Below are positions 2,621-35,345 of a stretch of DNA of 36,584 nt, piece by piece; the first letter of the stretch is position 1; every line of letters begins with the position of its first letter. Under the pieces are notes generated by a model. It ran no database searches. It saw only the letters and a list, made by a program, of their open reading frames with translations, and was not told the DNA's origin. This DNA is from a virus. Taxonomy: Duplodnaviria; Heunggongvirae; Uroviricota; Caudoviricetes. The stretch lies in IMG/VR virus record IMGVR_UViG_2718218304_000003; one strand, given 5' to 3'. The translations under genes and the position numbers were made by a program.

Positions 2621-2732
2621 AACTGAAGTTGCCCTGAAAATGAAATTTTTTTGCACAACCGCAGAACTTTTCCGCAGGGCATCAGTCTTAATTAGTGCCA
2701 CTGCTTTTCTTTGATGTCCCCATTTTGTGGAG

Positions 2733-2775
2733 CCCATCAACCCCGCCATTTCGGTTCAAGGTTGATGGGTTTTTT
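2733..2775 (+). terminator. intrinsic terminator in host/prophage junction
   Basis: Perfect 10-bp stem CCCATCAACC / GGTTGATGGG (2733-2742 / 2760-2769), 17-nt loop, T6 run at 2770-2775. Confidence 0.5.
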
Positions 2776-2855
2776 GTTGTCTGAAATTTATGCCGTTTAA
2801 AATCATGATGTTAGAAGCACTGTTTTTTAACGATGGCGACAAAATGGCGGCAGCG

Positions 2856-7821: not shown

Positions 7822-8250
7822 CGTTGGCCCCGCTTCTCTGAATCGCTTTATACCGCCATTCCAGCACTTCGGTCAGCGGCATAACGTCAGTAACGGATGG
7901 CGGCCAGTGAAAAATGGTGGCGATATCTGCCACCAGATCGTCAACCGTCAGGCTGTCGGTAAACCGGCAAGCACCGACTTCTTCAACAAAAAAGTGACAA
8001 CCTCAACCGACATGGCAGTGAGATCTGCCGGGTCCATCTCTGCAATTTCCTGTGCAGTCAGTACCGGACTGGAGATGCGGGGGATCACGGTCATCATCGC
8101 GTTCACATCCATATCCATAATGGCCTGCAGGCGTGTACCGCGCAGCGCACCGGACTGCGGTTTACGCAGCACAATTTCGGTAATTTCTGTTTTACCGCGC
8201 TTGATAGGGGTATCCAGTTGAATGGTCTTTTCAGTCTGCTTATCGCTCAT
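7814..8250 (-). CDS. tail assembly chaperone gpE+E' (-1 programmed frameshift product)
   Basis: Slippery heptamer TTTTTTG on the coding strand (revcomp of 7987-7993) inside gpE; the -1 frame continues ...VADIATIFHWPP... to a TAA at 7814-7816, overlapping the T start codon. Confidence 0.6.
7948..8250 (-). CDS. E: tail assembly chaperone gpE
   Basis: 100-aa ORF between FII and T, contains the slippery site near its 3' end. Confidence 0.8.
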   Translation of the reverse strand: MSDKQTEKTIQLDTPIKRGKTEITEIVLRKPQSGALRGTRLQAIMDMDVNAMMTVIPRISSPVLTAQEIAEMDPADLTAMSVEVVTFLLKKSVLAGLPTA

Positions 8251-8304
8251 TTTGTTGTCCTGTAAATTGGGTTCTGGCGCGGTATCCCGCGCCGTTCAGA
8301 TAGA

Positions 8305-8820
8305 TCAGAGGCCGAGGGCGTTGCGGTGCGCTTCCATCAGGTCTACACCGTCCACAATTTCCACCATGTTGATAAGGTCCACTTCATAGAGCACCTCACC
8401 ATTGATGGTCAGCTTCGCGTAGCTGTTGGTACTGGTCACTTTGGTGGTGTTGCTTTCGCCCGTCTTCCACTCGCCGGAATCCACTTCTTTGTGACGTCCA
8501 CGCACCACAAGCTCCACAGCCTGCACTTCCCCGGTATCGTCACGCTGGATAGAGCCGGTAAAGCGCAGCTGGATGCCATCCACCGTGGCTTTGCCCATCT
8601 GCTTAAACAGCAGCAGTTCAGTACCACCAATGGAAAATTCTGTATCCAGTGCACTGTCATCCAGTCCCAGATCCACATCCACCGCCCCCGGCATTCCGCC
8701 ACCGCGATACTTCTCATATTTGCGGGTGAATTTCGGCAGCGTCAGCGACTCAACGATCCCCTGCCAGTTGTTCCCGTCGTTAAACAGGTTCAGGTGTTTT
8801 AATTTGCGTGGTAAAGCCAT
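8305..8820 (-). CDS. FII: tail tube protein gpFII
   Basis: 171 aa (P2 FII is 172), position downstream of sheath gene. Confidence 0.9.
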   Translation of the reverse strand: MALPRKLKHLNLFNDGNNWQGIVESLTLPKFTRKYEKYRGGGMPGAVDVDLGLDDSALDTEFSIGGTELLLFKQMGKATVDGIQLRFTGSIQRDDTGEVQAVELVVRGRHKEVDSGEWKTGESNTTKVTSTNSYAKLTINGEVLYEVDLINMVEIVDGVDLMEAHRNALGL

Positions 8821-8829
8821 GTTGCCCCC

Positions 8830-10002
8830 TTACGCGCTGACCTGGCTGGCAAAATTCACCAGGTACTGATCGGTGATGCGCTGGCGCAGCATCAGATTTT
8901 CAAGTGGCGGCACTGGCGTGTAGTCATAGTCGATGGTGAGTTTTCCGGCTTTCAGCGTGTCTTTGTCGTTCACCGACTCATCCAGCCAGCAATCACCACC
9001 AATGAGATAGCCCTGACTGACCAGGCTGCGCATTTTGGCGCGGATACCTTCGATAATGTCGCGGGCCAGCGACGGGTTAAGCGGTTTATCCACCGCCCAC
9101 ATGTGTGCTTCTGCCATCGTGTCCATCAGCACCTGCGCCGTGCGGGTGTAGTTTTCGAAGGCAAAGAGCGGGTCATCACTCAGGCAGCGGGAACCCCAGA
9201 AGCGGAAACCGTCTTTACGCACAAGTGTGGTGACGTCGTTCTGGTTCAGCAGACCTGCATCGGTTGCCGGGTCCTGCAGATCCCAGAACACATCTGCAGA
9301 AATTCCGGTGACACCGTTCACGCCCACGTTGGACAGGCTTTTGTGCCATCCGGTCTGCTCGTCAATTTTGGCGCGCAGACCAAGCGCACGGGCGGTGGCA
9401 TATGCCGTTGCTTCGGCATTCAGCACCGTGTCCCAGCCAGTAAAGTCAGGCCAGATCAGCATCCCTTCGCGCTGGCTGAAGTTTTCACGGTAAGTGATCG
9501 CCTCCTGTACCGTCTTGCAGCCATACGCTGACAGGTAAGCAAATCCACGCAGGCTTTGCGCCACGCTCAGCAACTCAGTAGCTACCGCCTTGGTGTCGTG
9601 GCCTGGCACGCCGAGAATGCGCGGTTTAACGCCGAGCTGAGCCTGTGCAGATAACAGGGCTTTCATACCTGTTTTTTTACCTTCAGCAGTCACTGCGCCG
9701 ATGATATTGGTCGTGGTTTCGTCTTCCGTTTCACCCTGCGGCACACGCACAACAACGGTCACGGGTTTTGCCTGGTCAGCGATGGCATCCAGCGAACGAG
9801 CCAGCGTGCCTGACTCACCCGCTTTACCGCTGGCAGTCAGCACATCAGTGATCAGCACGGGTTTATTAAGAGGAAACATTTTTGCATCGGCATCATCGCC
9901 CGTGCAGACCATACCCACGATGGCGGTGCTCACCGTGGTAATGGATCGGGTGCCTTCGTTGACTTCAACAACGCGCACCCCGTGGTGGTAATCCTGAGCC
10001 AT
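8830..10002 (-). CDS. FI: contractile tail sheath protein gpFI
   Basis: 390 aa, P2 FI-like sequence and position. Confidence 0.9.
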
Positions 10003-10078
10003 AGTGGCGAACCTCCTGATTGGATTAGGCTTCGCCCTATGTTGAAGTGATTGTGCCTGACAAACAGCTAAGCGCAGT

Positions 10079-10096
10079 TGTATCGTTATTCATACA
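10079..10096 (-). promoter_or_regulatory. candidate late-promoter activator site (TGT-N12-ACA) upstream of FI
   Basis: TGTATCGTTATTCATACA, imperfect palindrome, 85 bp upstream of FI start codon; P2-family late promoters carry a TGT-N12-ACA Ogr site. Confidence 0.45.
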
Positions 10097-10144
10097 AAAT
10101 GACGGTATTTGTCTGCTTGCAGGGATAATCAACATAATGCTGAT

Positions 10145-10711
10145 TCAGGGGGATTCATTGCTCTTATTTGCCGGAAATTTTCTATAAATTGTGGAAACAC
10201 CCACATCAAAAATCAGTGCAATACGCTGTCTTGATTCTCCGGCCTCGAGTAAACGTCCAATCTGTGCCCACTTTTCGGTGGTCAACTTAGGACGGCGTCC
10301 ACCTACTCTGCCTTTAGCACGAGCTGCAGCCAGCCCCGCCCTGGTACGTTCAACTATCAGTTCGCGTTCCATTTCAGCCAGGGCCCCCATGACATGAAAA
10401 AAGAAACGGCCCATTGGGGTGCTGGTATCAATACTGTCAGTCAGGCTTCGGAAATTCACGCCACGCTGGCGCAGCTCTTCTATCAGCGTAACGAGATGCC
10501 GCATACTGCGCCCCAACCTGTCCAGCTTCCAGACAACCAGAGTGTCACCTGCCGATAATGTCCTGAGCAGTTTTTTCAGTCCCGGTCTGTCGGACTTAGT
10601 GCCACTGATTTTGTCCTCAAAAATCCGCTCACATCCCGCGCAGTTCAGTGCATTACGTTGCAAATCGGTGTTCTGGTCATTTGTTGACACGCGTACATAG
10701 CCAATAAGCAT
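10145..10711 (-). CDS. site-specific DNA invertase, serine recombinase (Gin/Cin/Pin/Hin family)
   Basis: N-terminal catalytic motif GYVRVSTNDQ and near-collinear match to Gin/Pin (VVWKLDRLGRSM, SPMGRFFFHVMGALAEMERELI); start moved to MLIGYV. Confidence 0.9.
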   Translation of the reverse strand: MLIGYVRVSTNDQNTDLQRNALNCAGCERIFEDKISGTKSDRPGLKKLLRTLSAGDTLVVWKLDRLGRSMRHLVTLIEELRQRGVNFRSLTDSIDTSTPMGRFFFHVMGALAEMERELIVERTRAGLAAARAKGRVGGRRPKLTTEKWAQIGRLLEAGESRQRIALIFDVGVSTIYRKFPANKSNESP

Positions 10712-10766
10712 GATCAATCCCCTGAATAAAAACCGGGGATGATGCCAGTTAGCTGTTACCTCTGCA

Positions 10767-10792
10767 TTTTCTTAAACGTTGGTTTGGGAGAA
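10767..10792. other. invertase crossover site (left inverted repeat)
   Basis: TTTTCTTAAACG-TT-GGTTTGGGAGAA; its 12-bp right half is the exact reverse complement of the left half of the site at 12297-12322; 12-2-12 layout as in gix/cix/hix. Confidence 0.6.
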
Positions 10793-11146
10793 GCGGCAAA
10801 ACGAAATGTGGGTAACGAGCAAAACCAAATTCCGGATATGGCGGCGTTTGCCAGTTCACTTTCATCAACGGGTTTTCAAAAACTCCCTTCAGGTCTGATT
10901 ATTCAGTGGGGTATAGTCAGTGGAGCATCAAACTATACGGTGACTTACCCGGTAACATTCCCAAATCGTTCACTTGCGCTGTTGGCTGTACCACATACAA
11001 CGTCGGTGGCGGGTATATCTGCAATGGGCATAGCGAACTGTTCTGATATCAGCAAATCACAGTTCTATATAATTGTTGGCGGTATATCTCAGGGAGAAAT
11101 TGTCAAATATGAAAGATCCTGTTTTTGGGTAGCAATCGGTGTATAG
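10781..11146 (+). CDS. silent alternative tail-fibre C-terminal segment (Sv'-like), expressed only after inversion
   Basis: Open frame runs through the crossover site (..GLGE..) and ends ..IAIGV like the current H C-terminus; shares LIIQWG with it; no own start expected. Confidence 0.55.
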   Translation, partial: GLGEAAKRNVGNEQNQIPDMAAFASSLSSTGFQKLPSGLIIQWGIVSGASNYTVTYPVTFPNRSLALLAVPHTTSVAGISAMGIANCSDISKSQFYIIVGGISQGEIVKYERSCFWVAIGV

Positions 11147-11154
11147 GTATATCT

Positions 11155-11550
11155 ATGATTTATTTCTCAAAATCGACTAATGGTTTTTTCTTCGATGGTA
11201 TAAACAGTGACATGCCTGCTGACATTGTTGAGATATGTACAGACTTATACAATGAATTAATTGCCGGACAGCAGGAAGGGGGTAAATTAATTACGTCAGA
11301 TGAAAATGGTTTACCGGTACTAAAATCCCCGGCGATTGATTATGTCGCACGTGCGGAAAATCAGCGAATGCAGTTACTTGCTCATGCCGATAATGTCACA
11401 GCTGACTGGCGAGTGGAATTAATGCTTGGTGATATCAGCAGTACAGATAAAGAAAAACTATCCGCCTGGATGGACTACAAAAAAGAAGTAAAAGCCGTCG
11501 ACACTTCGACGGCTCCTGAGATTAGCTGGCCTGAGTTACCGGAGGTGTAG
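11155..11550 (+). CDS. tail fibre assembly protein (U'-like, for the alternative fibre)
   Basis: Follows the alternative fibre end; C-terminus (DTSTAPEISWPELPEV) parallels the oppositely oriented chaperone; start moved to internal Met. Confidence 0.7.
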   Translation: MIYFSKSTNGFFFDGINSDMPADIVEICTDLYNELIAGQQEGGKLITSDENGLPVLKSPAIDYVARAENQRMQLLAHADNVTADWRVELMLGDISSTDKEKLSAWMDYKKEVKAVDTSTAPEISWPELPEV

Positions 11551-11959
11551 GCCATTCAATATCTGGAGCACTGGAGGTATCCACCAGTTCCAGTGCGTCC
11601 AGGTAATCCAGCCACAAATTATATAGTGCCAGTTCCTCACCTTTCAGACGACCAATAGCTGCTTTGCCAGGCCATTGCTTACTGTTCATGTATTCGTTGG
11701 CCTGATTAAGCAATAATTGCCTTTCTGTTTCTGCCTGTTGAATAAGTTCTTCATGTGATGGTGGAGGTATTAGTGCCCATGTGGGTAATCCATTTTTTCC
11801 TGCAACACGAATTTTGTCATCTGGGGGCGTATTGATTGCAAATTCATTATAAACATCATCACTGACAGCCAGAGCATCATCTGGCCATGAATTTGCATTA
11901 ATGTAATCATCCTTAAGCGCAGGATTCACAAAAATGTTTAAAGATGGACTATAAAACAT
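11522..11959 (-). CDS. tail fibre assembly protein (G/U-like)
   Basis: 145 aa immediately downstream of H; C-terminus (DTSSAPDIEWPTPP) typical of this chaperone family. Confidence 0.75.
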   Translation of the reverse strand: MFYSPSLNIFVNPALKDDYINANSWPDDALAVSDDVYNEFAINTPPDDKIRVAGKNGLPTWALIPPPSHEELIQQAETERQLLLNQANEYMNSKQWPGKAAIGRLKGEELALYNLWLDYLDALELVDTSSAPDIEWPTPPVTQAS

Positions 11960-20824: not shown

Positions 20825-21658
20825 TCAGCAATTGGTCAGAGTGTCAGCGGGGGCGTTACCGCCTGTTGCACGCTGGCGGTAGTCCTGGCGGCTGTCTTCT
20901 TGGCTCAGCTTGTCCACCAGTTCGTTAAAGGCGGTCTGCTGTGCCTGCAGGGCAGTCTCCAGCTCAGACAGGCGTTCTTCCTGCTCAGACAGGGATTTTT
21001 CGGTGCGCGCACTCAGGTTCTGCTGCTCAGTGGCGACCAGTTCCACGGCCTTATGCACATCAGAGAACCGGGCGTCATCGGACTGCTCTTTTTTGGTGAA
21101 CAGCGCCGTGACACGGGCAAACAGGGACGGTTTGTCATCCTGGATTTCTTCCAGTTCGATCACCGTTTCCTCTGCAGCGGTAAAAAGATTGGCGGGATTC
21201 TGCTTGCGGTTTGCCAGCGGGTTATGGGCTGCACTGGCGCTGAATGTCAGCATTTCAGTGCCCAGACTGGCAGGGTCATCAGTGGCAGCCAGGCCGACCA
21301 GGTAGGCTTTGCCCGTATCAGCAAACTTCGGGCTGACTTCCATAGAGGTGAATAATTTCTGGCCTTTTTTCACCAGTTCCACCAGTGATTCCGTTGGCTC
21401 AACGTCGGCATACAGCGCCATCTTGCCTGCCAGCGGACCTTCCGTGATTTCTTCAGCAAACAGCGCCGTCACCTTGCCGTAGCGGTTAAAGGTGCTGTCC
21501 GGCAGATAAGACTTGATGTGCTCAAGGTTAATCAGCGCGGTGTACATCGTCGGGTTGTAGCTGGCTGCCATCTGTTCCAGCCATTCACGCTGGATTTCGC
21601 GTCCGTCGGTGGTGGCACCTTCCACCCCGATGCGAAAACGCTTTGCTTTCACTGTCAT
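20825..21658 (-). CDS. O: capsid scaffolding protein gpO
   Basis: 277 aa with coiled-coil C-terminus; divergent from P. Confidence 0.85.
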   Translation of the reverse strand: MTVKAKRFRIGVEGATTDGREIQREWLEQMAASYNPTMYTALINLEHIKSYLPDSTFNRYGKVTALFAEEITEGPLAGKMALYADVEPTESLVELVKKGQKLFTSMEVSPKFADTGKAYLVGLAATDDPASLGTEMLTFSASAAHNPLANRKQNPANLFTAAEETVIELEEIQDDKPSLFARVTALFTKKEQSDDARFSDVHKAVELVATEQQNLSARTEKSLSEQEERLSELETALQAQQTAFNELVDKLSQEDSRQDYRQRATGGNAPADTLTNC

Positions 21659-21800: not shown

Positions 21801-23567
21801 ATGAACACCACACTGACACCCGCAGATCTCGATCCCCGTCGGCAGGCCATGCTGCTGTACTTTCAGGGATACCGCGTAGCCCGCATTGCTGAAATGCTGG
21901 GCGAGAAAGTTGCAACCGTTCACAGCTGGAAAAAACGCGACAAGTGGGGTGACTATGGGCCGCTGGATCAGATGCAGCTCACCACCGCCGCACGCTATTG
22001 CCAGCTCATTATGAAGGAGCACAAAGAAGGGAAAGATTTCAAAGAAATTGACCTGCTGGCACGCCAGTCGGAGCGCCACGCGCGGATCGGCAAGTTTAAC
22101 AATGGCGGCAACGAAGCCGACTTAAACCCTAACGTCGCCAACCGCAACAAAGGGCCGCGCCGTCAGCCGGAAAAGAATGTTTTCACCGATGAACAGATTG
22201 AGAAGCTGGAAGAAATCTTCCATTCCTCCATGTTCAACTACCAGCGCCACTGGTGGGAAGCTGGAAAAACCAACCGCATCCGTAATCTGCTGAAGTCACG
22301 CCAGATCGGCGCGACCTTTTACTTTGCCCGTGAAGCCCTGATTGACGCCCTGCTTACCGGACGTAACCAGATTTTCCTTTCTGCCAGTAAGGCACAGGCT
22401 CACGTCTTTAAGCAATACATCATCGACTTCGCCAAAGAAGTCGAGGTGGAGCTGAAAGGCGATCCGATGGTGCTTCCTAACGGGGCCACGCTTTACTTCC
22501 TCGGCACCAATGCCCGCACTGCCCAGAGTTATCACGGCAACCTGTATCTGGATGAATATTTCTGGATACCGAAATTCCAGGAGCTGCGCAAAGTGGCTTC
22601 CGGTATGGCTATTCACAAAAAATGGCGACAAACCTATTTTTCCACGCCATCCAGCCTGACACACAGTGCTTATCCGTTCTGGTCTGGTGCGCTGTTCAAC
22701 CGTGGGCGCAACAAAGCCGATAAGGTGGACATCGACCTGTCCCACAGCAATCTGGCCCCCGGCCTGCTGTGCGCAGACGGGCAATACCGCCAGATAGTCA
22801 CCGTGGAAGATGCAGTGCGCGGCGGATGTAACCTTTTCGACCTCGATCAGTTGCGCATGGAGTACAGCCCGGACGAATACCAGAACCTGCTGATGTGCGA
22901 GTTTGTGGACGATCTCGCGTCCGTGTTCCCGCTCAGCGAGCTGCAGGCGTGCATGGTGGACAGTTGGGAAGTCTGGAGCGACTTTCATGCACTGGCCCTG
23001 CGCCCGTTTGGCTGGCGCGAAGTGTGGATCGGTTATGACCCGGCAAAAGGTACGCAAAACGGCGACAGCGCCGGGTGCGTGGTGGTGGCACCGCCAGCCG
23101 TGCCGGGCGGTAAGTTCCGCATTCTTGAGCGTCACCAGTGGCGCGGGATGGACTTCCGCGCCCAGGCTGACGCCATCAAAAAACTGACTGAACAGTACAA
23201 CGTGACATACATCGGTATCGACTCAACCGGCGTCGGTCACGGGGTTTACGAGAACGTGAAAGCGTTTTTTCCTGCCGTCCGGGAGTTTGTCTACAACCCC
23301 AACGTTAAAAACGCCCTGGTACTCAAGGCCTACGACATTATTAGCCACCGCCGCCTGGAGTTTGACGCTGGGCACACCGACATAGCGCAGTCCTTTATGG
23401 CAATCCGTCGCGCCACCACTGCCAGCGGCAACCGCCCGACCTATGAAGCCAGCCGCAGCGAAGAAGCCAGCCACGCCGATCTGGCCTGGGCAACAATGCA
23501 CGCACTGTTTAATGAACCGCTGCAGGGCGAGTCCGCCAATACCAGCAATATTGTGGAGATTTTTTGA
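21801..23567 (+). CDS. P: terminase ATPase (large) subunit gpP
   Basis: 588 aa; near-collinear with P2 P (PADL.PRR, LLY.QGYRVA.IAE.LGEK, TVHSWK.RD, KSRQIGAT.YFA.EAL). Confidence 0.9.
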   Translation: MNTTLTPADLDPRRQAMLLYFQGYRVARIAEMLGEKVATVHSWKKRDKWGDYGPLDQMQLTTAARYCQLIMKEHKEGKDFKEIDLLARQSERHARIGKFNNGGNEADLNPNVANRNKGPRRQPEKNVFTDEQIEKLEEIFHSSMFNYQRHWWEAGKTNRIRNLLKSRQIGATFYFAREALIDALLTGRNQIFLSASKAQAHVFKQYIIDFAKEVEVELKGDPMVLPNGATLYFLGTNARTAQSYHGNLYLDEYFWIPKFQELRKVASGMAIHKKWRQTYFSTPSSLTHSAYPFWSGALFNRGRNKADKVDIDLSHSNLAPGLLCADGQYRQIVTVEDAVRGGCNLFDLDQLRMEYSPDEYQNLLMCEFVDDLASVFPLSELQACMVDSWEVWSDFHALALRPFGWREVWIGYDPAKGTQNGDSAGCVVVAPPAVPGGKFRILERHQWRGMDFRAQADAIKKLTEQYNVTYIGIDSTGVGHGVYENVKAFFPAVREFVYNPNVKNALVLKAYDIISHRRLEFDAGHTDIAQSFMAIRRATTASGNRPTYEASRSEEASHADLAWATMHALFNEPLQGESANTSNIVEIF

Positions 23568-24592
23568 TGGGAAAGAGTAAGAAAAACCGCGCTGCGGCGA
23601 CGAATCAGCTCAAGCATAAAAGCCAAACTTCAGCCGAAGCATTCAGCTTTGGCGATCCCGTTCCTGTTCTGGACCGCCGTGAACTGCTGGACTATGTGGA
23701 ATGCGTACAGATGGATCGCTGGTATGAGCCGCCCGTCAGCTTTGACGGACTGGCACGAACCTTCCGCGCCGCCGTGCATCACAGCTCACCAATTGCGGTG
23801 AAATGCAACATTCTGACCAGTACCTACATCCCTCACCCGCTGCTCAGCCAGCAGGCTTTTTCACGTTTTGTGCAGGACTATCTGGTATTTGGTAACGCCT
23901 ACCTGGAGAAACGCACGAACCGCTTCGGTGAAGTTATCGCCCTTGAGCCTGCTCTGGCAAAATACACCCGACGCGGGTTAGACCTGGATACCTACTGGTT
24001 TGTGCAATACGGTATGACAACCCAGCCGTATCAGTTCACGAAAGGCAGCATTTTTCATCTGATGGAACCTGACATCAACCAGGAGATCTACGGCCTACCA
24101 GGTTATCTTTCTGCCATTCCGTCAGCCCTGCTCAACGAGTCCGCCACGCTGTTCCGCCGGAAGTATTACATTAACGGCAGCCATGCAGGCTTCATCATGT
24201 ACATGACCGATGCCGCGCAGAACCAGGAGGATGTGAACAACCTCCGCAATGCGATGAAAAGCGCCAAAGGCCCTGGCAACTTCCGCAACCTGTTTATGTA
24301 CTCGCCTAACGGCAAAAAGGACGGGCTTCAGATCATCCCGTTGTCAGAAGTCGCGGCGAAGGATGAATTTCTGAACATCAAGAACGTCAGCCGTGATGAC
24401 ATGATGGCGGCACACCGCGTACCGCCTCAGATGATGGGAATTTTGCCGAATAATGTTGGGGGTTTTGGTGATGTGGAGAAGGCGAGCTGCGTCTTCGTAA
24501 GAAATGAACTATTACCACTTCAAAAAAGATTCATGGAAATAAATAGATGGCTTGGTCATGAAATTATAAATTTTGAAATATATACATTATAA
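23564..24592 (+). CDS. Q: portal protein gpQ
   Basis: 342 aa (P2 Q is 344); coupled to P (ATGA overlap); last ~35 codons AT-rich. Confidence 0.9.
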   Translation: MMGKSKKNRAAATNQLKHKSQTSAEAFSFGDPVPVLDRRELLDYVECVQMDRWYEPPVSFDGLARTFRAAVHHSSPIAVKCNILTSTYIPHPLLSQQAFSRFVQDYLVFGNAYLEKRTNRFGEVIALEPALAKYTRRGLDLDTYWFVQYGMTTQPYQFTKGSIFHLMEPDINQEIYGLPGYLSAIPSALLNESATLFRRKYYINGSHAGFIMYMTDAAQNQEDVNNLRNAMKSAKGPGNFRNLFMYSPNGKKDGLQIIPLSEVAAKDEFLNIKNVSRDDMMAAHRVPPQMMGILPNNVGGFGDVEKASCVFVRNELLPLQKRFMEINRWLGHEIINFEIYTL

Positions 24593-24597
24593 AACCC

Positions 24598-24620
24598 AAC
24601 GGCATCACAATGATGCCGTT
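24598..24620. terminator. hairpin between convergent Q and PIN-like gene
   Basis: 10-bp stem AACGGCATCA / TGATGCCGTT with 3-nt loop; T-rich on the minus-strand side. Confidence 0.4.
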
Positions 24621-24635
24621 ATGAACGAATTAATA

Positions 24636-25691
24636 TTAAAAATTATTTTCTTCAATAGAGAACTCAATCCCTCGGGATAACTTATCAATATTCACATCAA
24701 ATGCGATATCTGTTAATTCACCATCCTCGATTTCATACATAACTTCAATTTCAATATCGAAACTAATCTCTTGAACTTCAGTTCGTGTGGTTGTCTCCAT
24801 TGGAATCATTACTTTATCTTCGCTATCCCAATACCCATTATTAAAGTCTGGACCAGAAACAGTAACTTCAAAATCTACAGAAACAGAGAAGGTCGCTAGA
24901 CAATAATTATTGTCAATCTTAATTATTGATGGTTCAAAGTCATCAATATTGACGACTTCAAATGAATCCAATTCAGCGTCTTCCCAAGTTGAAACGTTAT
25001 ATCCATCGGCATCATTGAGTTGGGCAATTACGTCCGCTCTTATGTCTTCACGTTTGCTTTCGATAAACTGCATCAATTTATTACTTAATTCGTTTGTATG
25101 CGTATTGTATTCACCTAGAAACTTATCAAGTGAATCAATTTGATGAAGATTGTTTTTACCATCACAATAATTTTTTAAGTCACTATCCTCAGAAATGATA
25201 TACACATCTTCATCATTAACAAATCGCTCTACCGCAGCTAAAGTGATTGCATCAGGAAACTCACTTTTTTTCTTATTTTGCCCAAATGGTGGTTCTTTGC
25301 CAAAGTATTTATCTAAAACCTCATTAAGATCTATCACTTCTATTGTAGCTAATTTGGCGTGACATCCTTTCAAAAAATCATCAAAAACTTTTTGTGCTGC
25401 TTCGTGAATTTCATGTTCGTTAAATTGCTGAAAAAAACCATGGAGCGGTCCATTATCAATACTATTCAAAAGCCTAGCTTTTCTTTGTACTGTGTTTATA
25501 GCCTGCAGAGCATCCTTTATTGATTCCTCTATTTTACCTTTTACTTCTCTCTCTACAACTGTAGTTGTAATTAAGACTAAATCACCTTTCGCACATAATT
25601 CATGGAAAGCTTTAAATGCTACCCCCTCAAAATGAAGACCAGCCTTTACGTACGTTTGTGTGTCAATAAATACCTTATTTGTTTTAAGCAT
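24636..25691 (-). CDS. PIN-like domain protein with acidic C-terminal domain; candidate accessory/defence gene
   Basis: 351 aa; SD AGGA before ATG; N-terminus has PIN-style motifs (VFIDT ... VVERE ... IISEDSDL); C-terminal ~150 aa very acidic; AT-rich gene. Confidence 0.7.
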   Translation of the reverse strand: MLKTNKVFIDTQTYVKAGLHFEGVAFKAFHELCAKGDLVLITTTVVEREVKGKIEESIKDALQAINTVQRKARLLNSIDNGPLHGFFQQFNEHEIHEAAQKVFDDFLKGCHAKLATIEVIDLNEVLDKYFGKEPPFGQNKKKSEFPDAITLAAVERFVNDEDVYIISEDSDLKNYCDGKNNLHQIDSLDKFLGEYNTHTNELSNKLMQFIESKREDIRADVIAQLNDADGYNVSTWEDAELDSFEVVNIDDFEPSIIKIDNNYCLATFSVSVDFEVTVSGPDFNNGYWDSEDKVMIPMETTTRTEVQEISFDIEIEVMYEIEDGELTDIAFDVNIDKLSRGIEFSIEENNF

Positions 25692-25810
25692 ACTAATCCT
25701 AATAAGTTTTAAGATCCGCTACAATTGTTTATGTTTATTTTTTATCAATAATCATACGTAGTTAAGATTATCCATGTCGAAAAATTAAATCAACTTCAAT
25801 TTATCCTTAA

Positions 25811-25845
25811 GCGCGCGCTCGTATCCCCGCCACGCCTGCCCGCTT
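25811..25845. other. possible cos (cohesive end) region
   Basis: GC-rich block whose reverse complement reads GGCGTGGCGGGGA, resembling the P2/186 cohesive-end sequence as I recall it; expected between old/tin-equivalent genes and Q. Confidence 0.3.
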
Positions 25846-25881
25846 TATGTAGTGGTTTTCATGCAGGTGCATGACATAAGC

Positions 25882-25905
25882 AAAAGCCCGCCAGTTCTGG
25901 CGGGC
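25882..25905 (-). terminator. putative terminator after the two-gene accessory operon
   Basis: Stem GCCCGCC / GGCGGGC (25886-25892 / 25899-25905) followed on the minus strand by UUUU (25882-25885). Confidence 0.4.
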
Positions 25906-26050
25906 CTCAGCAAAAACGATCCTAAAACGATCATGCGGATTCATGCAGCATAGACATGCAAAGCTTGTTAGAACGGTGATTCCCATGTTAAAGGAGGCTT
26001 ACTCTTGTTGAGGTTAAACATCCACAGTAACTCCTGCCAATACGAACACT

Positions 26051-26587
26051 TTATTCATCATAGTGTTCTAATTTCGCTTTTGCTAAACGTCCATGTAAGT
26101 GATTAACAAAATGTAAATTATTCAAAATCAGGCTCATAACGCATTTTAATTGCATCCAGCTAATAAAGTAAATGAAGAAAATACCAATGTATTTAAACAA
26201 GTCTTTATTAGCTTGATAAACAGGTAATGCATAAAACACTGCCTTAACCAAAAAGAAAATTAGAATCCCAGCCATAACACAAGCAGATGTGATTATTGTA
26301 TAAACTAATTTCTCTATTCTTGGTGAGTCATGCTCATTTTTTATATAACTTACATCATCCTTAACAATACTATTCATTGCATTCGGATATAAAAAACCGA
26401 CCCATAAACCGACAATAGTGAATATAGATGCTGAAATATTTATAAGCGCACCTAAAATATCTTTTGCATCATTATAGGAAAAACTTTTGAACGAAAAATA
26501 GCTTATAACGCAGCACAAAACAACAGCAACAAAATTAATCGCCTGCTGTTTTGCAACTGTTATTATCAAACCTTCCGTTTCTGTCAT
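26051..26587 (-). CDS. 4-TM membrane protein, second gene of candidate accessory/defence operon
   Basis: 178 aa with four hydrophobic helices; ATG 1 nt after the stop of the upstream gene; SD GGAAGG inside upstream gene. Confidence 0.75.
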   Translation of the reverse strand: MTETEGLIITVAKQQAINFVAVVLCCVISYFSFKSFSYNDAKDILGALINISASIFTIVGLWVGFLYPNAMNSIVKDDVSYIKNEHDSPRIEKLVYTIITSACVMAGILIFFLVKAVFYALPVYQANKDLFKYIGIFFIYFISWMQLKCVMSLILNNLHFVNHLHGRLAKAKLEHYDE

Positions 26588-26588
26588 A

Positions 26589-27788
26589 TCAACCTTCCGC
26601 TATCTTTTTTGTGGATGCAGCTTCAGATTCTTTAATGGATGCTTCCTCAGCATATTTTACTTCACTAATCAAATCATCACGAATTTTGTTTATTTCATCC
26701 AGTAAAAAACGCGCTGAATAATGCTCAACCCCATCCGAATCTTGAAGAGGAAGTTTAGTCCTGGCTACATAGCTACTGAGCCAAACCGGATTAGCACGAT
26801 CAGCCAGTAAAAAACCCACATCCCATTCAGACTCTTCACCTCTCATTGAGAAGAGATTTCGAAGCTCATCCGATGATGGTGCACCGTCAATTTTAACTTC
26901 AATTTTACGAGGCTGCTCCAAAACAGGAGGTGCCCCAATAAGCTTATTACGCTTTTCTTCACCCACCAGAGATGCTAAAGCTACACTTGTTAGCTTCAAC
27001 AATGGTTGCCTTGTGTCATTTTGGTTTATTACCGTTGTATCCTTTATCAATGTGTGTGTAATTTTATGCCTTAACCTTTCAAAGTTTTCCTCAGCGGCTT
27101 TAAGTTTTGTTTCTTCCAATACAAACTTGAAGATACAGTTTATCTCATTTTTGCCATCTTTATATTGAAACTTAGTATTGTAGACATCCACACAACGACC
27201 AGGGGTCTTAGCTGATTCAAATGTACGCTTAGATTTCGTTCTTTTACCTAACTTACTATTATTATTTACATGCTGAATGAAGTATTGTGCGAAGAGATAA
27301 GTATCAGCGAAAGAATGGGGGAATCTGATTGATGCTATTTTATTCAACTCAGGAATAATCCAGTAATAGCAGGGTTCACCCCAAATTATTTTATCCTCAC
27401 CATGTTCTCTTCCCGCCCTAATGGTTCCTTTACTATCACCACTTACTTTAGAACCGACCTTAATACCATGTATTCCGTTACCGTTCCCCACTTCACGGTA
27501 TAAAACAATTACTGCATCTTTAGTCTGGCTGTCCCTCACAAGGCCTCGACTGTAAACTCGTGTTCGCAGAGGTTGTTCTTCTTTATTCCATGGGAGAGTC
27601 TGCTCAAAATTTTTATCCTTGAGCCACCCTTCTAAATCGTCCAAAACCCCCATAAGATCGCCGAATTTATAATCAAGCTCTTCGGGTTTATTCTTTAAAC
27701 GATAAAACCCACAAGCAGTAATATCAAAGAAGGTGATTGAGCCGTTGTCCACTAAAACTCCTTTTTGCCAAAGCAACACACGATACAT
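26589..27788 (-). CDS. unknown soluble protein, first gene of candidate accessory/defence operon
   Basis: 399-aa ORF, AT-rich, no family I can name; R-x4-H motif (RHKITH); translationally coupled to the membrane gene. Confidence 0.7.
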   Translation of the reverse strand: MYRVLLWQKGVLVDNGSITFFDITACGFYRLKNKPEELDYKFGDLMGVLDDLEGWLKDKNFEQTLPWNKEEQPLRTRVYSRGLVRDSQTKDAVIVLYREVGNGNGIHGIKVGSKVSGDSKGTIRAGREHGEDKIIWGEPCYYWIIPELNKIASIRFPHSFADTYLFAQYFIQHVNNNSKLGKRTKSKRTFESAKTPGRCVDVYNTKFQYKDGKNEINCIFKFVLEETKLKAAEENFERLRHKITHTLIKDTTVINQNDTRQPLLKLTSVALASLVGEEKRNKLIGAPPVLEQPRKIEVKIDGAPSSDELRNLFSMRGEESEWDVGFLLADRANPVWLSSYVARTKLPLQDSDGVEHYSARFLLDEINKIRDDLISEVKYAEEASIKESEAASTKKIAEG

Positions 27789-27955
27789 TTTTCACGTATA
27801 CCATCAGAATCGTCCCTAAACTTCAAGTTACTTATGATAATCAAGAAAGCTGTCGAATGTTGTTGCATAGGCCAAAGTTTCAGGGGAACAAGGCATTCTT
27901 AAATCACTTTTCACTACCCGTTTCTAACGCCTCACGCGGCTCGTTGTTCAACCTT

Positions 27956-27986
27956 GCGGACGATAAAAACCAGTTTTATCGTCCGC
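27956..27986 (-). terminator. strong hairpin after the DinI-like gene
   Basis: 13-bp perfect stem GCGGACGATAAAA / TTTTATCGTCCGC with 5-nt loop, 9 nt downstream of the DinI-like stop. Confidence 0.4.
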
Positions 27987-27994
27987 AACGTTCG

Positions 27995-28228
27995 CTAGTG
28001 TAACCAGCTGTCGTCCTCCCAGACCTTCTGCATAATTTTCATCACTTGTTTTCTTTCTTCGTCCAGTTGCAGTCCGGTCAGTTCCACACCGTTAGAGCTA
28101 CCTTTGCGGATACGAATTACCGTTTTGGGATACAGGGGGCGCAGATTGCGGTAAAGCTCGGATTCAAGGGCGTCCAGTGTAGACTGGCTAATCTTCTGCT
28201 CTTTATCGATCATTATTTCAATGCGCAT
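27995..28228 (-). CDS. DinI-like protein (SOS-inducible; Tum-type antirepressor candidate)
   Basis: DinI-family similarity (MRIEI.IDK, LY.KTVIRIRKGSSNGVELTGL, ER, KIMQKVWEDD.W); start moved to MRIEI, preceded by SD GAGGTGA. Confidence 0.75.
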   Translation of the reverse strand: MRIEIMIDKEQKISQSTLDALESELYRNLRPLYPKTVIRIRKGSSNGVELTGLQLDEERKQVMKIMQKVWEDDSWLH

Positions 28229-28238
28229 AAAAGTCACC

Positions 28239-28427
28239 TCAGCTGATGACATCCATTGAGCGGTTGTATTCATGGGTTCTGATTTTTGCCATGAGTTCAT
28301 CTGTCAGTTCAGAAACCCACTGCAGGGCCAGCCCCTTCTCTTCATCACTACACTCACTAGCCGCTACAAGCTTAAGAAAAAAATCAATGCGCTGGAGCTT
28401 CAAAGACTCCAAAAAATAGTCCTGCAT
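28239..28427 (-). CDS. small protein, first gene of LexA-controlled operon
   Basis: 62-aa ORF with strong SD (GGAGGA) directly downstream of the LexA box; stop 10 nt before the DinI-like start. Confidence 0.5.
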   Translation of the reverse strand: MQDYFLESLKLQRIDFFLKLVAASECSDEEKGLALQWVSELTDELMAKIRTHEYNRSMDVIS

Positions 28428-28469
28428 CTTTCCTCCTATGACACCAAAGCAATGCTGTATACATAACCA

Positions 28470-28485
28470 CTGTTTATATTTACAG
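28470..28485 (-). promoter_or_regulatory. LexA operator (SOS box)
   Basis: CTGTTTATATTTACAG = CTGT-N8-ACAG, overlapping a TTTACA / TATACT promoter reading into the 62-aa and DinI-like genes; weaker half-match CTGT-N8-CCAC adjacent at 28455-28470. Confidence 0.6.
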
Positions 28486-28588
28486 TATATAATAATCTTA
28501 CTGATGTAAAACGTTTTTTTACGTTCATCAGCCTGGTATGCCTGGTATGCCTGGTATTATTAAGAGCACGAATTGTTAACCCGCGTAA

Positions 28589-30961
28589 TTAATACAGATC
28601 CCGCCACTTATCATCTTCCTGCAAACGCTGGTTCCGATAGAAGATACGCAGGCCTGCTCCTGACGGAATACTGCCACCGCGAAGGAGTAAATCGACCTCT
28701 TTCTCGCTGCCATCAAATCCTCTGGACTTCAGTTCATAGACGAGCTGCTGTCGCTGATGATCTGTAATTCGCTGTTTGTAGTCTCTACGCCGTTTCGGTT
28801 TCACCAGGCGTAACCTTGCAGCCAGTTCCCGGCGCTCTTTTTTGTTCATACTGTGCAGGTAATCGTGCAATTCCTTGTCATCCATGCGGGTGATATCCGT
28901 TCTGGTATCCCCATCAGCTGATTTGTCTTTCCCTTGTTGGTACAAATTTTCAGCAAGGGGACAGTTATTGCCACGAGTCCAAGGGGCGCAAGCGCCCTGG
29001 TCGGCTGCCGCCTCCTGAACATCAACGGCCTTACGAACCATTTTCCACTTCACGGCATGAGTGCAGATCTTGCCCTCTGCAATAGGTGACCAGATGCCAT
29101 AAATACGAATGCCGTGATCGCCATAGGCGGTCGGCTCTTCGTTGATTTCATAAGCGGTTCTGATGAGGTGATATTTGCGGGGAACCAGTACGCCGCCCTG
29201 CTTCATGATGTAGGTGGCAAAACAACCAGCATCAGCAGCAGCCAGGATGGCATCAAGGCGCGGGTTATCCAGTACCGGCGCACCTGCTTTTTTGTCCCCC
29301 TGTTGCCTTGCCGCCTGACCAGCCAGCAATCGCAGTTCACGGTAAGCCTGACGCCCCGGAATGCCAAAGAAGCGGAATTGCTGAACACGATGCAGAGACG
29401 CCCAGGCATTAACGTATTCAGCATTATCACGCAGGGATTTCCCCGTTTCCTTGCTGATCTCGCCAGCCAGACCACGCCCGTCAATGTTCTTACTGATGTA
29501 TTTCGCGATGTAGCTTGTTGGCGTACCTTTGCGCGGGTTAATCAACTCAGACTTAAAGCGCGGCCCAGTGTTATTGCCCAGTTCCTCGCGGTCTTCACGG
29601 ATGGCAAACTTACGCAGTAATGCAGTGATGGCGCGGCGGTCTTTTTTGCGCATAAAACACAACAGGTGCCAGTGAACTGTACCGTCATGATGCGGCTCAG
29701 CCACCCGCACGCCATACCACCGCAATCCGGCTTTGTGCATCGCCTTACGAAATGCAGCAAACATGCCGACCAGATAATCACTGCTTTGTCTTACCGTCGC
29801 ATTTGTCCAAGTTGGGTTGGGCCTGCCATTATTTAGCGTGGAATGGAAACGTGACGGACAGGTGATGGTGTAGAAAACGGCGCAGTCACCGCGCATTTCC
29901 GCGATAAGCTCCAGGCCTTTAACACAGGCCATCATCTCATTGCGGCGATGCGCAGGGTTGCTGCTGCTGGCGTTTACCACATCCTCCATGTCCAGCGTGT
30001 CGCCGTCTTCGTTCACCAGTTCATGAGAACGAAAAAACTCCAGCGACTTACGGCGCTGCTCGCGTTTATGCATCACGGCTTCATAGCTGACATAGGGAGA
30101 TGCTTTTTTGCTGACCAGGCAGACAGCACGCAACTGCTCTTCCCGCCATTCACAACGCATCTTCCATAATTTCCGGTACCACCAGTCAGCGCACAACATA
30201 CGCGCCAGCGAACCCGGAATGAGTTCATAGGGCACGGGTTTACGGCGGTTTCTTTTCCGGCGGAGTTGCTCAAACGCAGGCGGGATGACATCCAGACGCA
30301 GGGTTTCCGCTGCCACCTTTTCCCATGTCTTGCGGATTTCTTCTGGCTTAACGTCATCGGTGACATACAAATCGCCACAAGCTGCATCAAGGCACATGCT
30401 CATATGCGCAGCTACCAGGGTGGACAGGCGTTTCACCTGATCCTGACTCATTTCAGGCAGGATCAGCAGGCCGTCCAGCCCTTCATGGCTTGCCATAAAG
30501 CGAAAAGAAGTGGATAGCTGACAGTCGCGTACATGCTCCAGCCGTTCCAGACATGGCTTAATCGTTTCACGCAAATAGCGGGAATAAGCCTTTGGCCTGC
30601 CCAGGCTGCTGAAGTATTCAATACGTTGCATCAGTGGCTTGCTGATATGGGAAGGCTGGGCATTGACGTCCGCCAGAATGACCATATCTGGATTAAAACG
30701 CTGCTGCTCATGCGCCAGCTTTGCCCGACTAATGAGCTTATCCTGCTCCATTTCGCGCTGGACAGGATCACGGGATTCATTAAAGAAATAACGCTCCCAG
30801 ACCTGATCACTCAGTGCCTCGCGGCGCAGCTGTTCCTGCTCGTTATCGGCAGCGTACAGAGCGATCAGGTTTGAAAGCGCAGAAACTGAAGATTGCTCTT
30901 CTGTCTCTACGTAAGGATTGATTGCTTTTTTCTCAGCATTCCAGGAATAGCTGTAGTTCAT
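28589..30961 (-). CDS. A: replication initiation endonuclease gpA (rolling-circle)
   Basis: Conserved P2 A motifs [12 protein letters not shown] and [12 protein letters not shown]; start moved to the ATG whose A is shared with the upstream TAA stop, giving 790 aa. Confidence 0.9.
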
Positions 30962-31791
30962 TACGCAATCTCCAGTTCGAGCTGTGAAGGCTGCAAACCA
31001 TTCGACAGCCAATCAGAAACTGAAGGTGGGCGAACAGCTTCAATTGCACCTTTTAAAATTGCGCAACGGTTTTTCAGAATGACAGCTTTCAGCTCCTTTT
31101 CCGTCAGATTGCGCGAATACTCAGCCTCCTGAATAGCCCGCGTCAGCTCAGGATATTTGCTATTAAATTTGGGGACATTGCAGGCAAGATTTGTACTGTC
31201 GGCAGTCGCCAGTGGGTAATTTCCCAACACACGACCGTCAAGCATGCGCAAACCATGAACAGCTGTTTTGAAATTGTGTCGGCAATAAATTGCTTCAAAA
31301 GCGTCCTGCATACGACGATGCCAGTGCGCAGTTCTGATAGCCGCATATTCACCAGACGATCCAAAGCAGACACGAGGCCATTCACGACATAGCTCGATAA
31401 GCCGATCGATTGACTCGTGCAGATGCCAGACGGGAGTTGCCTTCCCGTAGAACATTTTCGGAACTTCGTTTATCAGGGCATCATTGTCACGTTCACCTCC
31501 GTCCACAACATCAGGAATGACAAAAAAAGCGACCTTAGGATGGTGGTAATAGTTCAGGAGCCATTTATAAAAATCACTCCAGTTAATTTTTAGCCCACGC
31601 ACCCATGCAGAAAATGCGCCGTTATCAATGCCGACGACCTGAGCGTGCTGAATGGACGCCGCAATCTGATCTGGTCGTACATAGGAGACGAAAGCGCCAG
31701 CTCCGCTCACCGCAATACGATGAACGTCGCCAGCACTTCCCCAGACAGGCGTCCCATGGAAATGATGAATTCCGTGGTGCATTTCTTTCAC
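30961..31791 (-). CDS. hypothetical protein coupled between dam and A
   Basis: 276-aa ORF (GTG at 31791 or ATG at 31782); overlaps dam stop and A start; no family recognised. Confidence 0.65.
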
Positions 31792-34443: not shown

Positions 34444-34568
34444 GATGCAACATTCCTCGTTTAATGATGATTAATCAGGACGAATACGGATCGTTTGTAT
34501 TTTGTGAACACCATAAACATACGATCGCACAGTGAAATCGTCAAGATAAAAGTTCACTTGGAGTGACC
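34444..34568. promoter_or_regulatory. lysis-lysogeny switch region
   Basis: 125-bp divergent intergenic region between apl and cI with repeated GTGAA/TTCAC motifs; operators not resolved. Confidence 0.4.
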
Positions 34569-35138
34569 ATGAATTTGGAGAAAGGCGGACGAGGCGCTAT
34601 AGAGCGCATGGTAGAAGCTTATGGATTCAAAACTCGACAGGCGTTGTGCGATCATTTAGGAATCTCTAAAAGTACACTCGCCACACGCTACATGCGTGAC
34701 TCATTCCCAGCAGAATGGGTAATCCAGTGCGCCCTTGAAACGGGCACCTCGCTTAATTGGCTCACAACCGGACATGGTTCAAAGCAAACTTCAGGTAATA
34801 CAAATACTATGGAAGTTGCTAAATATGTATTATCTGATGGTGCCTTGCGTGAAGACGGTTTTTATATTTTTGATAAGGGATTTCTACCCTCTACGTTTAA
34901 AAAACCTTTTGTCATCACAGATAACAATTCTGAATTTATTTGTGATAAAGAATTTGATGATATACGTGACGGTAAATGGGTAATAAGTATTGATGGCGAA
35001 ATAACAATCCGCGACATTACTCGTTTACCCGGTGGAAGAATCTTCGTTGAAGGTGGAAACAGAGCCTTCGAGTGCAAGATAGAAGATGTTGAAATAATTG
35101 GGAAAATTATAAGTTTAACAATTAAGTACGTTAGGTAA
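34569..35138 (+). CDS. cI: CI-like immunity repressor (phage 186 type)
   Basis: 189 aa from ATG preceded by SD GGAG (ORF track starts at GTG 34563); N-terminal HTH-like domain; length close to 186 CI; AT-rich C-terminal half. Confidence 0.7.
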   Translation: MNLEKGGRGAIERMVEAYGFKTRQALCDHLGISKSTLATRYMRDSFPAEWVIQCALETGTSLNWLTTGHGSKQTSGNTNTMEVAKYVLSDGALREDGFYIFDKGFLPSTFKKPFVITDNNSEFICDKEFDDIRDGKWVISIDGEITIRDITRLPGGRIFVEGGNRAFECKIEDVEIIGKIISLTIKYVR

Positions 35139-35153
35139 TACCGGGAGGAAACT

Positions 35154-35345
35154 ATGCTTGGTAAGGTATTTTTTGTGGTTTTATCATGCTCTTTGTTATT
35201 AAACCCACTAACTACCTATGCTAAAAATTATCCTTGTTCTGGGAAAAAGGGAGGTGTCTCTCACTGTACCTCCGATGGAAAGTTCGTTTGCAATGATGGA
35301 ACTATTAGTAAATCAAAAAAAATCTGTACTAAAAACTCGCGATAA
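35154..35345 (+). CDS. small secreted cysteine-rich peptide (moron candidate)
   Basis: 63 aa; strong SD GGGAGGA; signal peptide then ~40-aa Lys-rich mature part with 4 Cys; AT-rich. Confidence 0.55.

Follow-up and report, generated by a model that had tools for sequence, protein, structure and literature searches.

How is the accessory DNA between the portal gene and the replication gene of a P2-like prophage organized, and how is it exchanged? We addressed this in IMGVR_UViG_2718218304_000003, a viral record of 36,584 nucleotides (nt) that was analyzed in full (the window) and that represents a P2/186-family (Peduoviridae) prophage of Escherichia coli, with a map reversed relative to that of P2. 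The region studied is an AT-rich tract that lies between the portal gene Q and the replication gene A and that prophages of E. coli strains D9 and D4 share at 100% identity. Its place is that of the gpQ-gpA (old/tin, 'TO region') hotspot of P2-like phages, a variable locus adjacent to the cohesive-end site (cos) whose defence content has been published (Rousset et al. 2022, PMC9122126; follow-up PMC13586616). This hotspot is an actively mined source of anti-phage systems, and the island itself is no discovery. A preliminary description of this DNA had correctly placed a junction in the tail of Q, but did not recognize the published hotspot. Our analysis indicates that the tract is very probably a cos-proximal accessory (defence) hotspot, with two swapped cargo slots split by cos and cassettes exchanged by recombination.

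Composition and limits of the tract

Sliding-window analysis of the guanine-plus-cytosine (GC) content confirmed the contrast between tract and flanks that had been noticed by eye; composition along the window is not uniform. GC content is 0.509 in the whole window and 0.529 in the body of Q, and falls to 0.295 in the last 112 nt of Q (24481-24592), 0.330 at 24593-25809 and 0.370 at 25961-27923, whereas outside the tract every 1200-nt window has at least 0.39 (mean 0.527). The maximum-likelihood changepoint lies at 24498 (0.52 to 0.32; likelihood ratio 44.8), which is 95 nt, about 31 codons, upstream of the Q stop codon (24592) and close to the roughly 100 nt and 35 codons first proposed. GC at third codon positions (GC3) is 0.64 in the body of Q and 0.24 in its last 37 codons.

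Contrary to what had been supposed, the tract is not continuous. A GC-normal block of 151 bp (0.543) at 25810-25960, which the preliminary description overlooked, interrupts it and corresponds to cos. Lowered GC (0.44) runs on to the gene A stop codon at about 28600; by homology, the variable DNA stops at 27923. The conserved block (25810..25960) aligns to the annotated cosL/cosR of P2 and the cos of 186, is common to nearly all enterobacterial relatives at 80-99% identity, and contains the homologue of the cohesive-end 19-mer, CTCGTATCCCCGCCACGCC (plus strand, 25818-25836). Homology with relatives picks up exactly at GCGCGCGC (25810/25811), 8 nt left of this sequence, and cargo-specific DNA begins 8 nt to the left and about 125 nt to the right of the 19-mer. 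A search of the window for the exact P2 cos 19-mer, allowing up to three mismatches, gave no match; cos was located by alignment and is nearer the 186 type. An open reading frame (ORF) of 59 amino acids across the block (25807-25986) had no family matches and was treated as spurious.

The flanks of the tract are homologues of the portal protein gpQ and the replication protein gpA, as assigned by Pfam and by alignment to P2 Q and 186 W. On the left, Q (341 amino acids; 23567..24592, plus strand; Pfam Phage_portal) starts at an ATG at 23567 that overlaps the stop codon of the terminase gene P; on the right, gene A (28589..31012, minus strand; Pfam Phage_GPA, E = 1.3e-127) forms the backbone flank. 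Alignment to P2, 186 and other relatives mapped the breakpoints between them: the backbone is 90-97% identical among relatives, most of which have no homology in 24593-25809 or 25961-27923. In Klebsiella and E. coli relatives with other cargo, homology extends through P and most of Q, fades in the Q tail, is absent from 24593 to 25809, returns from 25810/25811 to 25960 and is lost again from 25961 to 27923 (to 27984/28003 in some), beyond which a DinI module and gene A are homologous at 93-98%. Unrelated cargo stands at the same place in relatives, including AIPR, Hypoth_Ymh, reverse transcriptase (RT), TIR, GmrSD, DUF4145, HNH and DUF2971 genes. Slot 1 (24498-25809) thus comprises, in the window, the Q tail, a terminator and a PIN_12 gene with its own promoter-like site, while slot 2 (25961..27923, delimited by BLAST breakpoints and absent where slot 2 is empty) holds a two-gene operon matching the PDC-M18 models.

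The LexA-controlled module to the right had been counted as a third cargo unit, and here the comparison gave a different answer. The SOS module (27924..28588, minus strand) is 93-98% identical in relatives with other cargo and is kept whatever that cargo is; where slot 2 of a relative is empty, sequence homologous to 27924 and beyond begins about 8 nt after the cos block. It consists of a LexA box, TACTGTAAATATAAACAGTG (a 20-mer at 28468-28487), a 62-amino-acid ORF of PHROG 698 (28239-28427, minus strand), a DinI-like gene of 77 amino acids (27995-28228, minus strand; Pfam DinI) and a terminator hairpin at about 27954-27988. The core of the box, CTGT-N8-ACAG at 28470-28485, is the sole perfect match in the window, and the box lies 41 nt upstream of the first ORF, as expected of the operator that we predict it to be. 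With the C-terminal half of 186 Tum, the DinI-like protein shares 41% identity (E = 3e-24), and the module is homologous to the p95-tum region of 186. These alignments place the DinI module in the conserved backbone and not in the cargo. Its role is most likely SOS induction, by analogy with p95-tum in 186, because a 186-type CI repressor is present. Between the gene A stop codon and the LexA-controlled promoter we also observed a perfect tandem repeat, 3 x GCCTGGTAT (28531-28557).

Assortment of the slots and history of the portal-gene tail

If the tract were one island, its halves would be inherited together. Comparison of hotspot content across related prophages revealed instead that the cargo differs and that the PIN and M18 halves occur apart. 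Among 5426 complete E. coli genomes, the PIN segment is present in 36, at an identity of at least 99.6% and always adjoining Q, and the M18 segment in eight; both are carried only by D9 and D4 among the records that were listed or fetched. Strain 2452 pairs PIN in slot 1 with HNH in slot 2, and NS-NP030 pairs PIN with DUF2971. M18 in slot 2 is paired with GmrSD in UMNK88, and a variant of it (87%) with DUF4145 in E7476. Nine viral-contig loci with the same PIN cassette show at least five slot-2 lengths beyond those of these strains, including an empty one. Altogether, this PIN cassette is paired with at least eight slot-2 states. The slot-1 partners of M18 are PIN, GmrSD, DUF4145 and KAP_NTPase. 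The PIN unit and the two-gene operon, described before as parts of one island, are therefore two independently assorting slots split by cos. Gene A of NS-NP030 (8121-10371 of its locus record, L010) is interrupted by an internal stop codon and is a pseudogene.

The flanking backbone uncouples at the same place as the cargo. Compared with strain 2452, the window is 0.998-1.000 identical over 23564-25809, falling to 0.915 over 25866-25960 and to 0.93-0.96 in gene A. Compared with UMNK88, identity is 1.000, 0.998, 0.985 and 0.995 in successive segments that run from 25866 across slot 2 and the DinI module into the first stretch of gene A; the remainder of that gene is at 0.977-0.984, and the Q body reaches only 0.89-0.93. 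Across 18 loci, the segment right of cos has a median identity of 1.000 between loci with the same slot 2 and 0.863 between loci with different slot 2 (p = 3e-8), and is unrelated to slot 1 (0.863 vs 0.863; p = 0.33). Seven pairs that differ in slot 1 and share slot 2 are 0.98-1.00 identical there. Since identity right of cos tracks slot 2 and not slot 1, the linkage breaks within 25811..25865, an interval on which the variable-site map, the identity table and the linkage test agree. These 55 bp are nearly invariant in all relatives and contain the cos cleavage site. In the one-genome-per-species set, shared cargoes were too few for a strong pairwise linkage test.

Our model suggests that cassettes are swapped among P2-like phages, with the conserved backbone providing the recombination anchors. 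The left crossover would fall in Q upstream of a conserved FVRN motif, and slots 1 and 2 would be uncoupled inside the invariant stretch holding the cos cut site. The window itself would be a recombinant: from Q up to cos it is of the common PIN type, and from cos through gene A of the UMNK88 type. What enzymology would act at cos? Rousset et al. (2022; PMC9122126) speculated that cohesive ends might drive exchange. We tentatively extend this idea: the cos cut site may be the crossover that reshuffles the slots, either because the cohesive ends of P2-like genomes in the same cell are joined or because terminase makes breaks in them, with a second homologous crossover elsewhere to complete the exchange, and the last ~31 portal codons may be an old allele series locked to the slot-1 cassettes. 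This specific version is possible but doubtful, ordinary homologous recombination being the competing route. If it were true, it would give sequence-level support to a mechanism that has so far been a matter of speculation, and it would show which units of the hotspot are really exchanged.

The left border deserves closer attention, as it lies inside a structural gene. The cassette-linked tail (24498..24592, plus strand), which emerges from the changepoint, the identity and GC3 profiles and the synonymous substitution rates (dS), begins at the FVRN motif, whose F codon is at 24494 in the window. Among PIN carriers, tail identity is 0.99 even when the 5' part of Q is 0.93-0.95 identical (codons 1-100: 0.926). 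Against close relatives with other cargo it is 0.57-0.69, and in these relatives identity drops stepwise from 0.97 in P to 0.93 in the 5' part of Q, 0.89 at 24101-24497 and 0.67-0.69 in the tail. Where the downstream cargo differs, tails have a median identity of 57%, compared with 80% for the 300 nt directly upstream, and the tail proteins are 48-68% identical, compared with 94-95% for the Q body. These patterns indicate that the Q tail travels with slot-1 cargo. The dS of the tail is saturated in 1060 of 1326 pairs, while that of the adjacent body is 0.4-0.6 in the same genome pairs; the tail and the body are therefore of different ages. Where computable, the ratio of nonsynonymous to synonymous rates (dN/dS) comes to 0.14 for the tail and 0.018 for the body. 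As judged by these rates, the tail alleles are old and subject to purifying selection, and nothing points to diversifying selection. With the left crossover upstream of FVRN, the last ~31 codons of the portal gene would therefore come with each slot-1 cassette as an old, AT-rich allele particular to it.

This junction is not peculiar to the window. We surveyed 67 P2-like prophages of different species in which cos could be located. The difference between tail and body GC3 was -0.005 in the 11 with an empty slot 1 (149-250 nt) and -0.27 in the 56 with a filled one (p = 1.2e-5), and tail GC3 followed the GC content of the cargo (Spearman rho = 0.71, p = 1e-9). In profiles anchored on FVRN, filled and empty loci coincide until about 16 codons before the motif; past it, GC3 is 0.34-0.44 in filled and 0.60-0.75 in empty loci. 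The amino acids of the tail are likewise skewed to those with AT-rich codons (FYMINK 0.30 vs 0.23). Distant PIN homologues (52-54% amino-acid identity) also stand directly after Q and have AT-rich tails. An exact 42-mer of the window's tail had no match in viral contigs, probably as it is one single-nucleotide polymorphism away from the common allele. The last Q codons also include an imperfect 16-nt tandem repeat, TGAAATATATAAATTT (1.9 copies, 24559-24588), which probably just mirrors the extreme AT-richness.

Gene content and predicted function of the cassettes

Slot 1 carries a single gene, which encodes a PIN_12 (DUF4935) protein of 351 amino acids (24636..25691, minus strand). The protein matches Pfam PF16289 with 90.9 bits (cut-off 32) over residues 7-171, which form its N-terminal PIN-like nuclease domain; the C-terminal domain is conserved and has no known fold. 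Residues D10, T11, E49, D147, D169 and D171 are invariant in 31 of 31 PIN homologues (39-56% identity), and four of the acidic ones among them (D10, E49, D147, D169 and D171) would make up the predicted active site. The family is widespread in gamma-proteobacteria, with a length of about 357 amino acids. A hairpin terminator with an 11-bp stem and a T-run (24597..24621) separates the convergent Q and PIN genes, and the best consensus match to a promoter in the region, TCGACA-18-TATGAT (25751..25780, minus strand; 10/12 positions), may serve the PIN gene. A structure model of the PIN protein made without an alignment had a predicted local distance difference test score (pLDDT) of 46 and was discarded.

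The slot-2 operon encodes PDC-M18A, of 387 amino acids (26589..27752, minus strand; PADLOC E = 4.5e-31), and PDC-M18B, of 178 amino acids (26051..26587, minus strand; PADLOC PDC-M18B, E = 2.7e-18). Both PDC-M18 models are matched, and M18B starts 1 nt past the M18A stop codon on the same strand. The probable start of M18A is the GTG at 27752, which is preceded by an AAAGGAG Shine-Dalgarno sequence and gives the length of the homologues (387 amino acids); the ORF runs 12 codons further upstream, to an ATG at 27788. M18A is predicted to adopt a RexA/RdgC-like fold resembling that of λ RexA. M18B has hydropathy peaks of membrane-span length at residues 15-33, 48-66, 103-121 and 136-154, as would be expected of the small four-helix inner-membrane partner of RexAB-type systems. 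Sequence similarity to RexA and RexB was not detected (see below), nor was a Pfam match, so the Rex analogy rests on the predicted fold and the gene architecture. By that analogy, PDC-M18 would work like lambda RexAB, with a RexA-fold cytoplasmic sensor and a small four-helix membrane effector.

Some other M18 loci are worth recording. The M18 segment of UMNK88, next to a different slot 1, is 99.8% identical to that of the window, and its M18A gene is annotated as two pieces of 951 and 129 nt (L011, 5129-6292); the system may be inactivated in that strain. M18A/B pairs of 49% identity occupy one end of an E. coli P4-like satellite (with an alpha-type primase, Ogr/Delta and Phage_ASH) and, in Klebsiella, in a decayed islet with an integrase fragment alongside, next to proBA-type genes (L105-L109). 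The cassette therefore moves between types of element. Exchange between P2 and P4 through cos was considered for these five loci, and no cos was found near M18 in them.

Could the tract have a simpler history than exchange at two slots? A single horizontal transfer that inserted one island of some 3.5 kb of foreign DNA at the Q end, reaching from the Q tail into the DinI module, would agree with a low GC content that is nearly unbroken from 24498 to about 28600 and with genes that are all on one strand. We find this scarcely credible, as the two halves are found apart in different prophages, which already contradicts it, a conserved GC-normal cos block sits in the middle, the flank haplotypes left and right of cos differ in ancestry, and the DinI module is conserved in all relatives. 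The Q tail alone could have become AT-rich in place, by AT-biased mutation or selection beside the cargo (possible causes being an expansion of the DNA bound and silenced by H-NS, relaxed selection on codons, or missing GC-biased repair in non-recombining DNA). Every cassette type has a tail of its own, no donor phage was found, and both the amino-acid usage and the higher dN/dS of the tail fit this explanation. We nevertheless consider it unlikely, because the switch is abrupt and falls at a conserved motif, the saturated dS points to different ages of tail and body, and the tail is 99% identical with its cargo across Q backbones 5-7% apart. The two processes are compatible: drift in place could explain the composition, and co-transfer the linkage. 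It is also conceivable that selection holds the tail alleles apart, the portal C-terminus being matched to the linked cargo, for instance as a self/non-self mark that spares the phage from its own defence gene. Strong divergence at the protein level and inheritance of tails with cargo would be expected from this; however, dN/dS is far under 1, tails beside unrelated cargo are about as divergent as tails beside related cargo, and linkage to non-homologous DNA suffices without any function, which makes such matching very improbable.

A further question is whether the cargo acts against phages at all. The genes could be ordinary morons of a prophage, encoding for example an addiction module akin to toxin-antitoxin systems or a membrane protein that serves the phage life cycle: neither unit has a known phenotype, partition systems and toxins have also been noted in the hotspot (Rousset et al. 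2022), and lambda RexA also acts in the lysis-lysogeny switch of its own phage. Yet the PADLOC candidate-defence models match both M18 proteins, the slots of relatives hold recognized defence genes (AIPR, retron-type RT, TIR and GmrSD), and PIN12-domain and RexAB-type systems have been validated elsewhere. We thus regard a purely moron-like role as rather improbable and infer an anti-phage function for the PIN and M18 units.

Several observations weigh against the two-slot defence hotspot as we describe it. PDC-M18 has no more than candidate status in PADLOC, and the systems validated in the main text of Rousset et al. (2022) include neither unit. A profile search of M18A against the PDB gave no match, its hhalign probability with lambda RexA is 0.2%, and M18B reaches E = 5.7 with lambda RexB by BLASTP. 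The preliminary description had proposed that the last Q codons were imported with the cargo; a history shared with the downstream cargo is borne out, but an AT-rich donor phage is not, as tblastn with the last 48 amino acids of Q against 50,697 phage records found none, with best matches of at most 79%, all in enterobacterial P2-like phages. The tails of distant PIN homologues are no nearer to the window's tail than those of other cassettes, and an ancient co-divergence of tail and PIN could therefore not be shown. The locus pairs in the linkage tests are not phylogenetically independent, which makes their p-values indicative. Finally, the 55-bp interval is invariant, and sequence alone cannot separate a cos-specific mechanism from ordinary homologous recombination within it.

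The rest of the window places the hotspot in its prophage. The leftmost ~2.8 kb is host DNA, with a permease gene (Asp-Al_Ex/TrkA_C, 561 amino acids; 935-2620, plus strand) preceding the small RNA gene RybB (2700-2778, plus strand; Rfam, 105 bits). The left end of the prophage lies here, and rybB or its immediate vicinity is the probable attachment site. At 10145-11959, a Hin-type serine invertase (Resolvase and HTH_7) lies beside oppositely oriented genes for a tail-fibre C-terminus and tail-fibre assembly, in a patch of low GC (0.41-0.43); the arrangement looks like an invertible host-range segment. Gene order leading to Q is scaffold O (20825-21658, minus strand) and terminase P (21801-23567, plus strand). 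Between gene A, whose start it overlaps by about 50 nt, and a gene for a Dam methylase stands a 276-amino-acid ORF without a Pfam match (30961-31791, minus strand). Right of gene A follow the Dam methylase, the 186-type CI repressor (34563-35138) and an integrase reaching the window end; a second low-GC patch (34501-35250, 0.35-0.41) spans the repressor gene and the immunity region.

Comparison with known systems

The hotspot and its gene arrangements were already known; the locus table of Rousset et al. (PMC9122126) includes PIN_12 and DinI arrangements, strain 2452 among them, as well as the accession of the M18B protein. What the present analysis adds is fine structure: two slots, a join centred on cos, and a portal-gene junction found family-wide. 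In the literature searched, we found no description of a hotspot divided by cos, a junction within Q or a backbone status of DinI, although these borders may have been described earlier. Surveys that treat gpQ-gpA as one locus mix two independent slots with a conserved SOS module, which inflates the count of arrangements and blurs which genes form one system. That a slot-1 cassette comes with its own portal C-terminus is relevant to the engineering and swapping of cassettes, and the break in linkage within the 55-bp cos stretch makes the mechanism of cassette exchange directly testable.

How do the parts compare with systems studied elsewhere? A PIN12-domain integron cassette protects against T7 in a manner dependent on predicted active-site residues ('Cosus', bioRxiv 10.1101/2024.07.02.601719). 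Like other PIN_12/DUF4935 proteins, including Cosus as far as its description goes, the window's PIN protein is the product of a one-gene unit, has a PIN-like domain at its N-terminus and retains conserved acidic residues; its C-terminal half matches no known fold. The M18 pair differs from lambda RexAB and RexAB-type exclusion (8TWQ; Pseudomonas putida PP_5643/5644, PMC12894663) in having no detectable sequence similarity. M18A is also about 110 residues longer than RexA, and the operon, unlike that of lambda, does not stand beside the immunity repressor.

The SOS module resembles the p95-tum operon of coliphage 186 in its position between gene A and cos, in the LexA box ahead of its genes and in the likeness of its DinI-like protein to the C-terminal half of Tum, and the CI of the prophage is of the 186 type. 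In contrast to 186 Tum, in which an N-terminal antirepressor part is fused to the DinI-like part, the window has a free-standing DinI-like gene; the 62-amino-acid ORF has no similarity to the Tum N-terminus, and no homologue of orf97 was seen in comparison with 186.

As in the gpQ-gpA hotspot, the tract lies between portal and replication genes by cos and carries hypervariable, short defence-type systems. In P2 itself, all cargo (old and tin) is on the gene A side of cos and the Q-cos gap is empty, as in 186 (168-177 nt in the two phages, 168 nt in P2). In the literature searched, the hotspot is treated as a single locus 'adjacent to cos', with DinI and the 62-amino-acid ORF counted as its content, whereas the window has two slots, with DinI as backbone and a left border about 31 codons inside Q.

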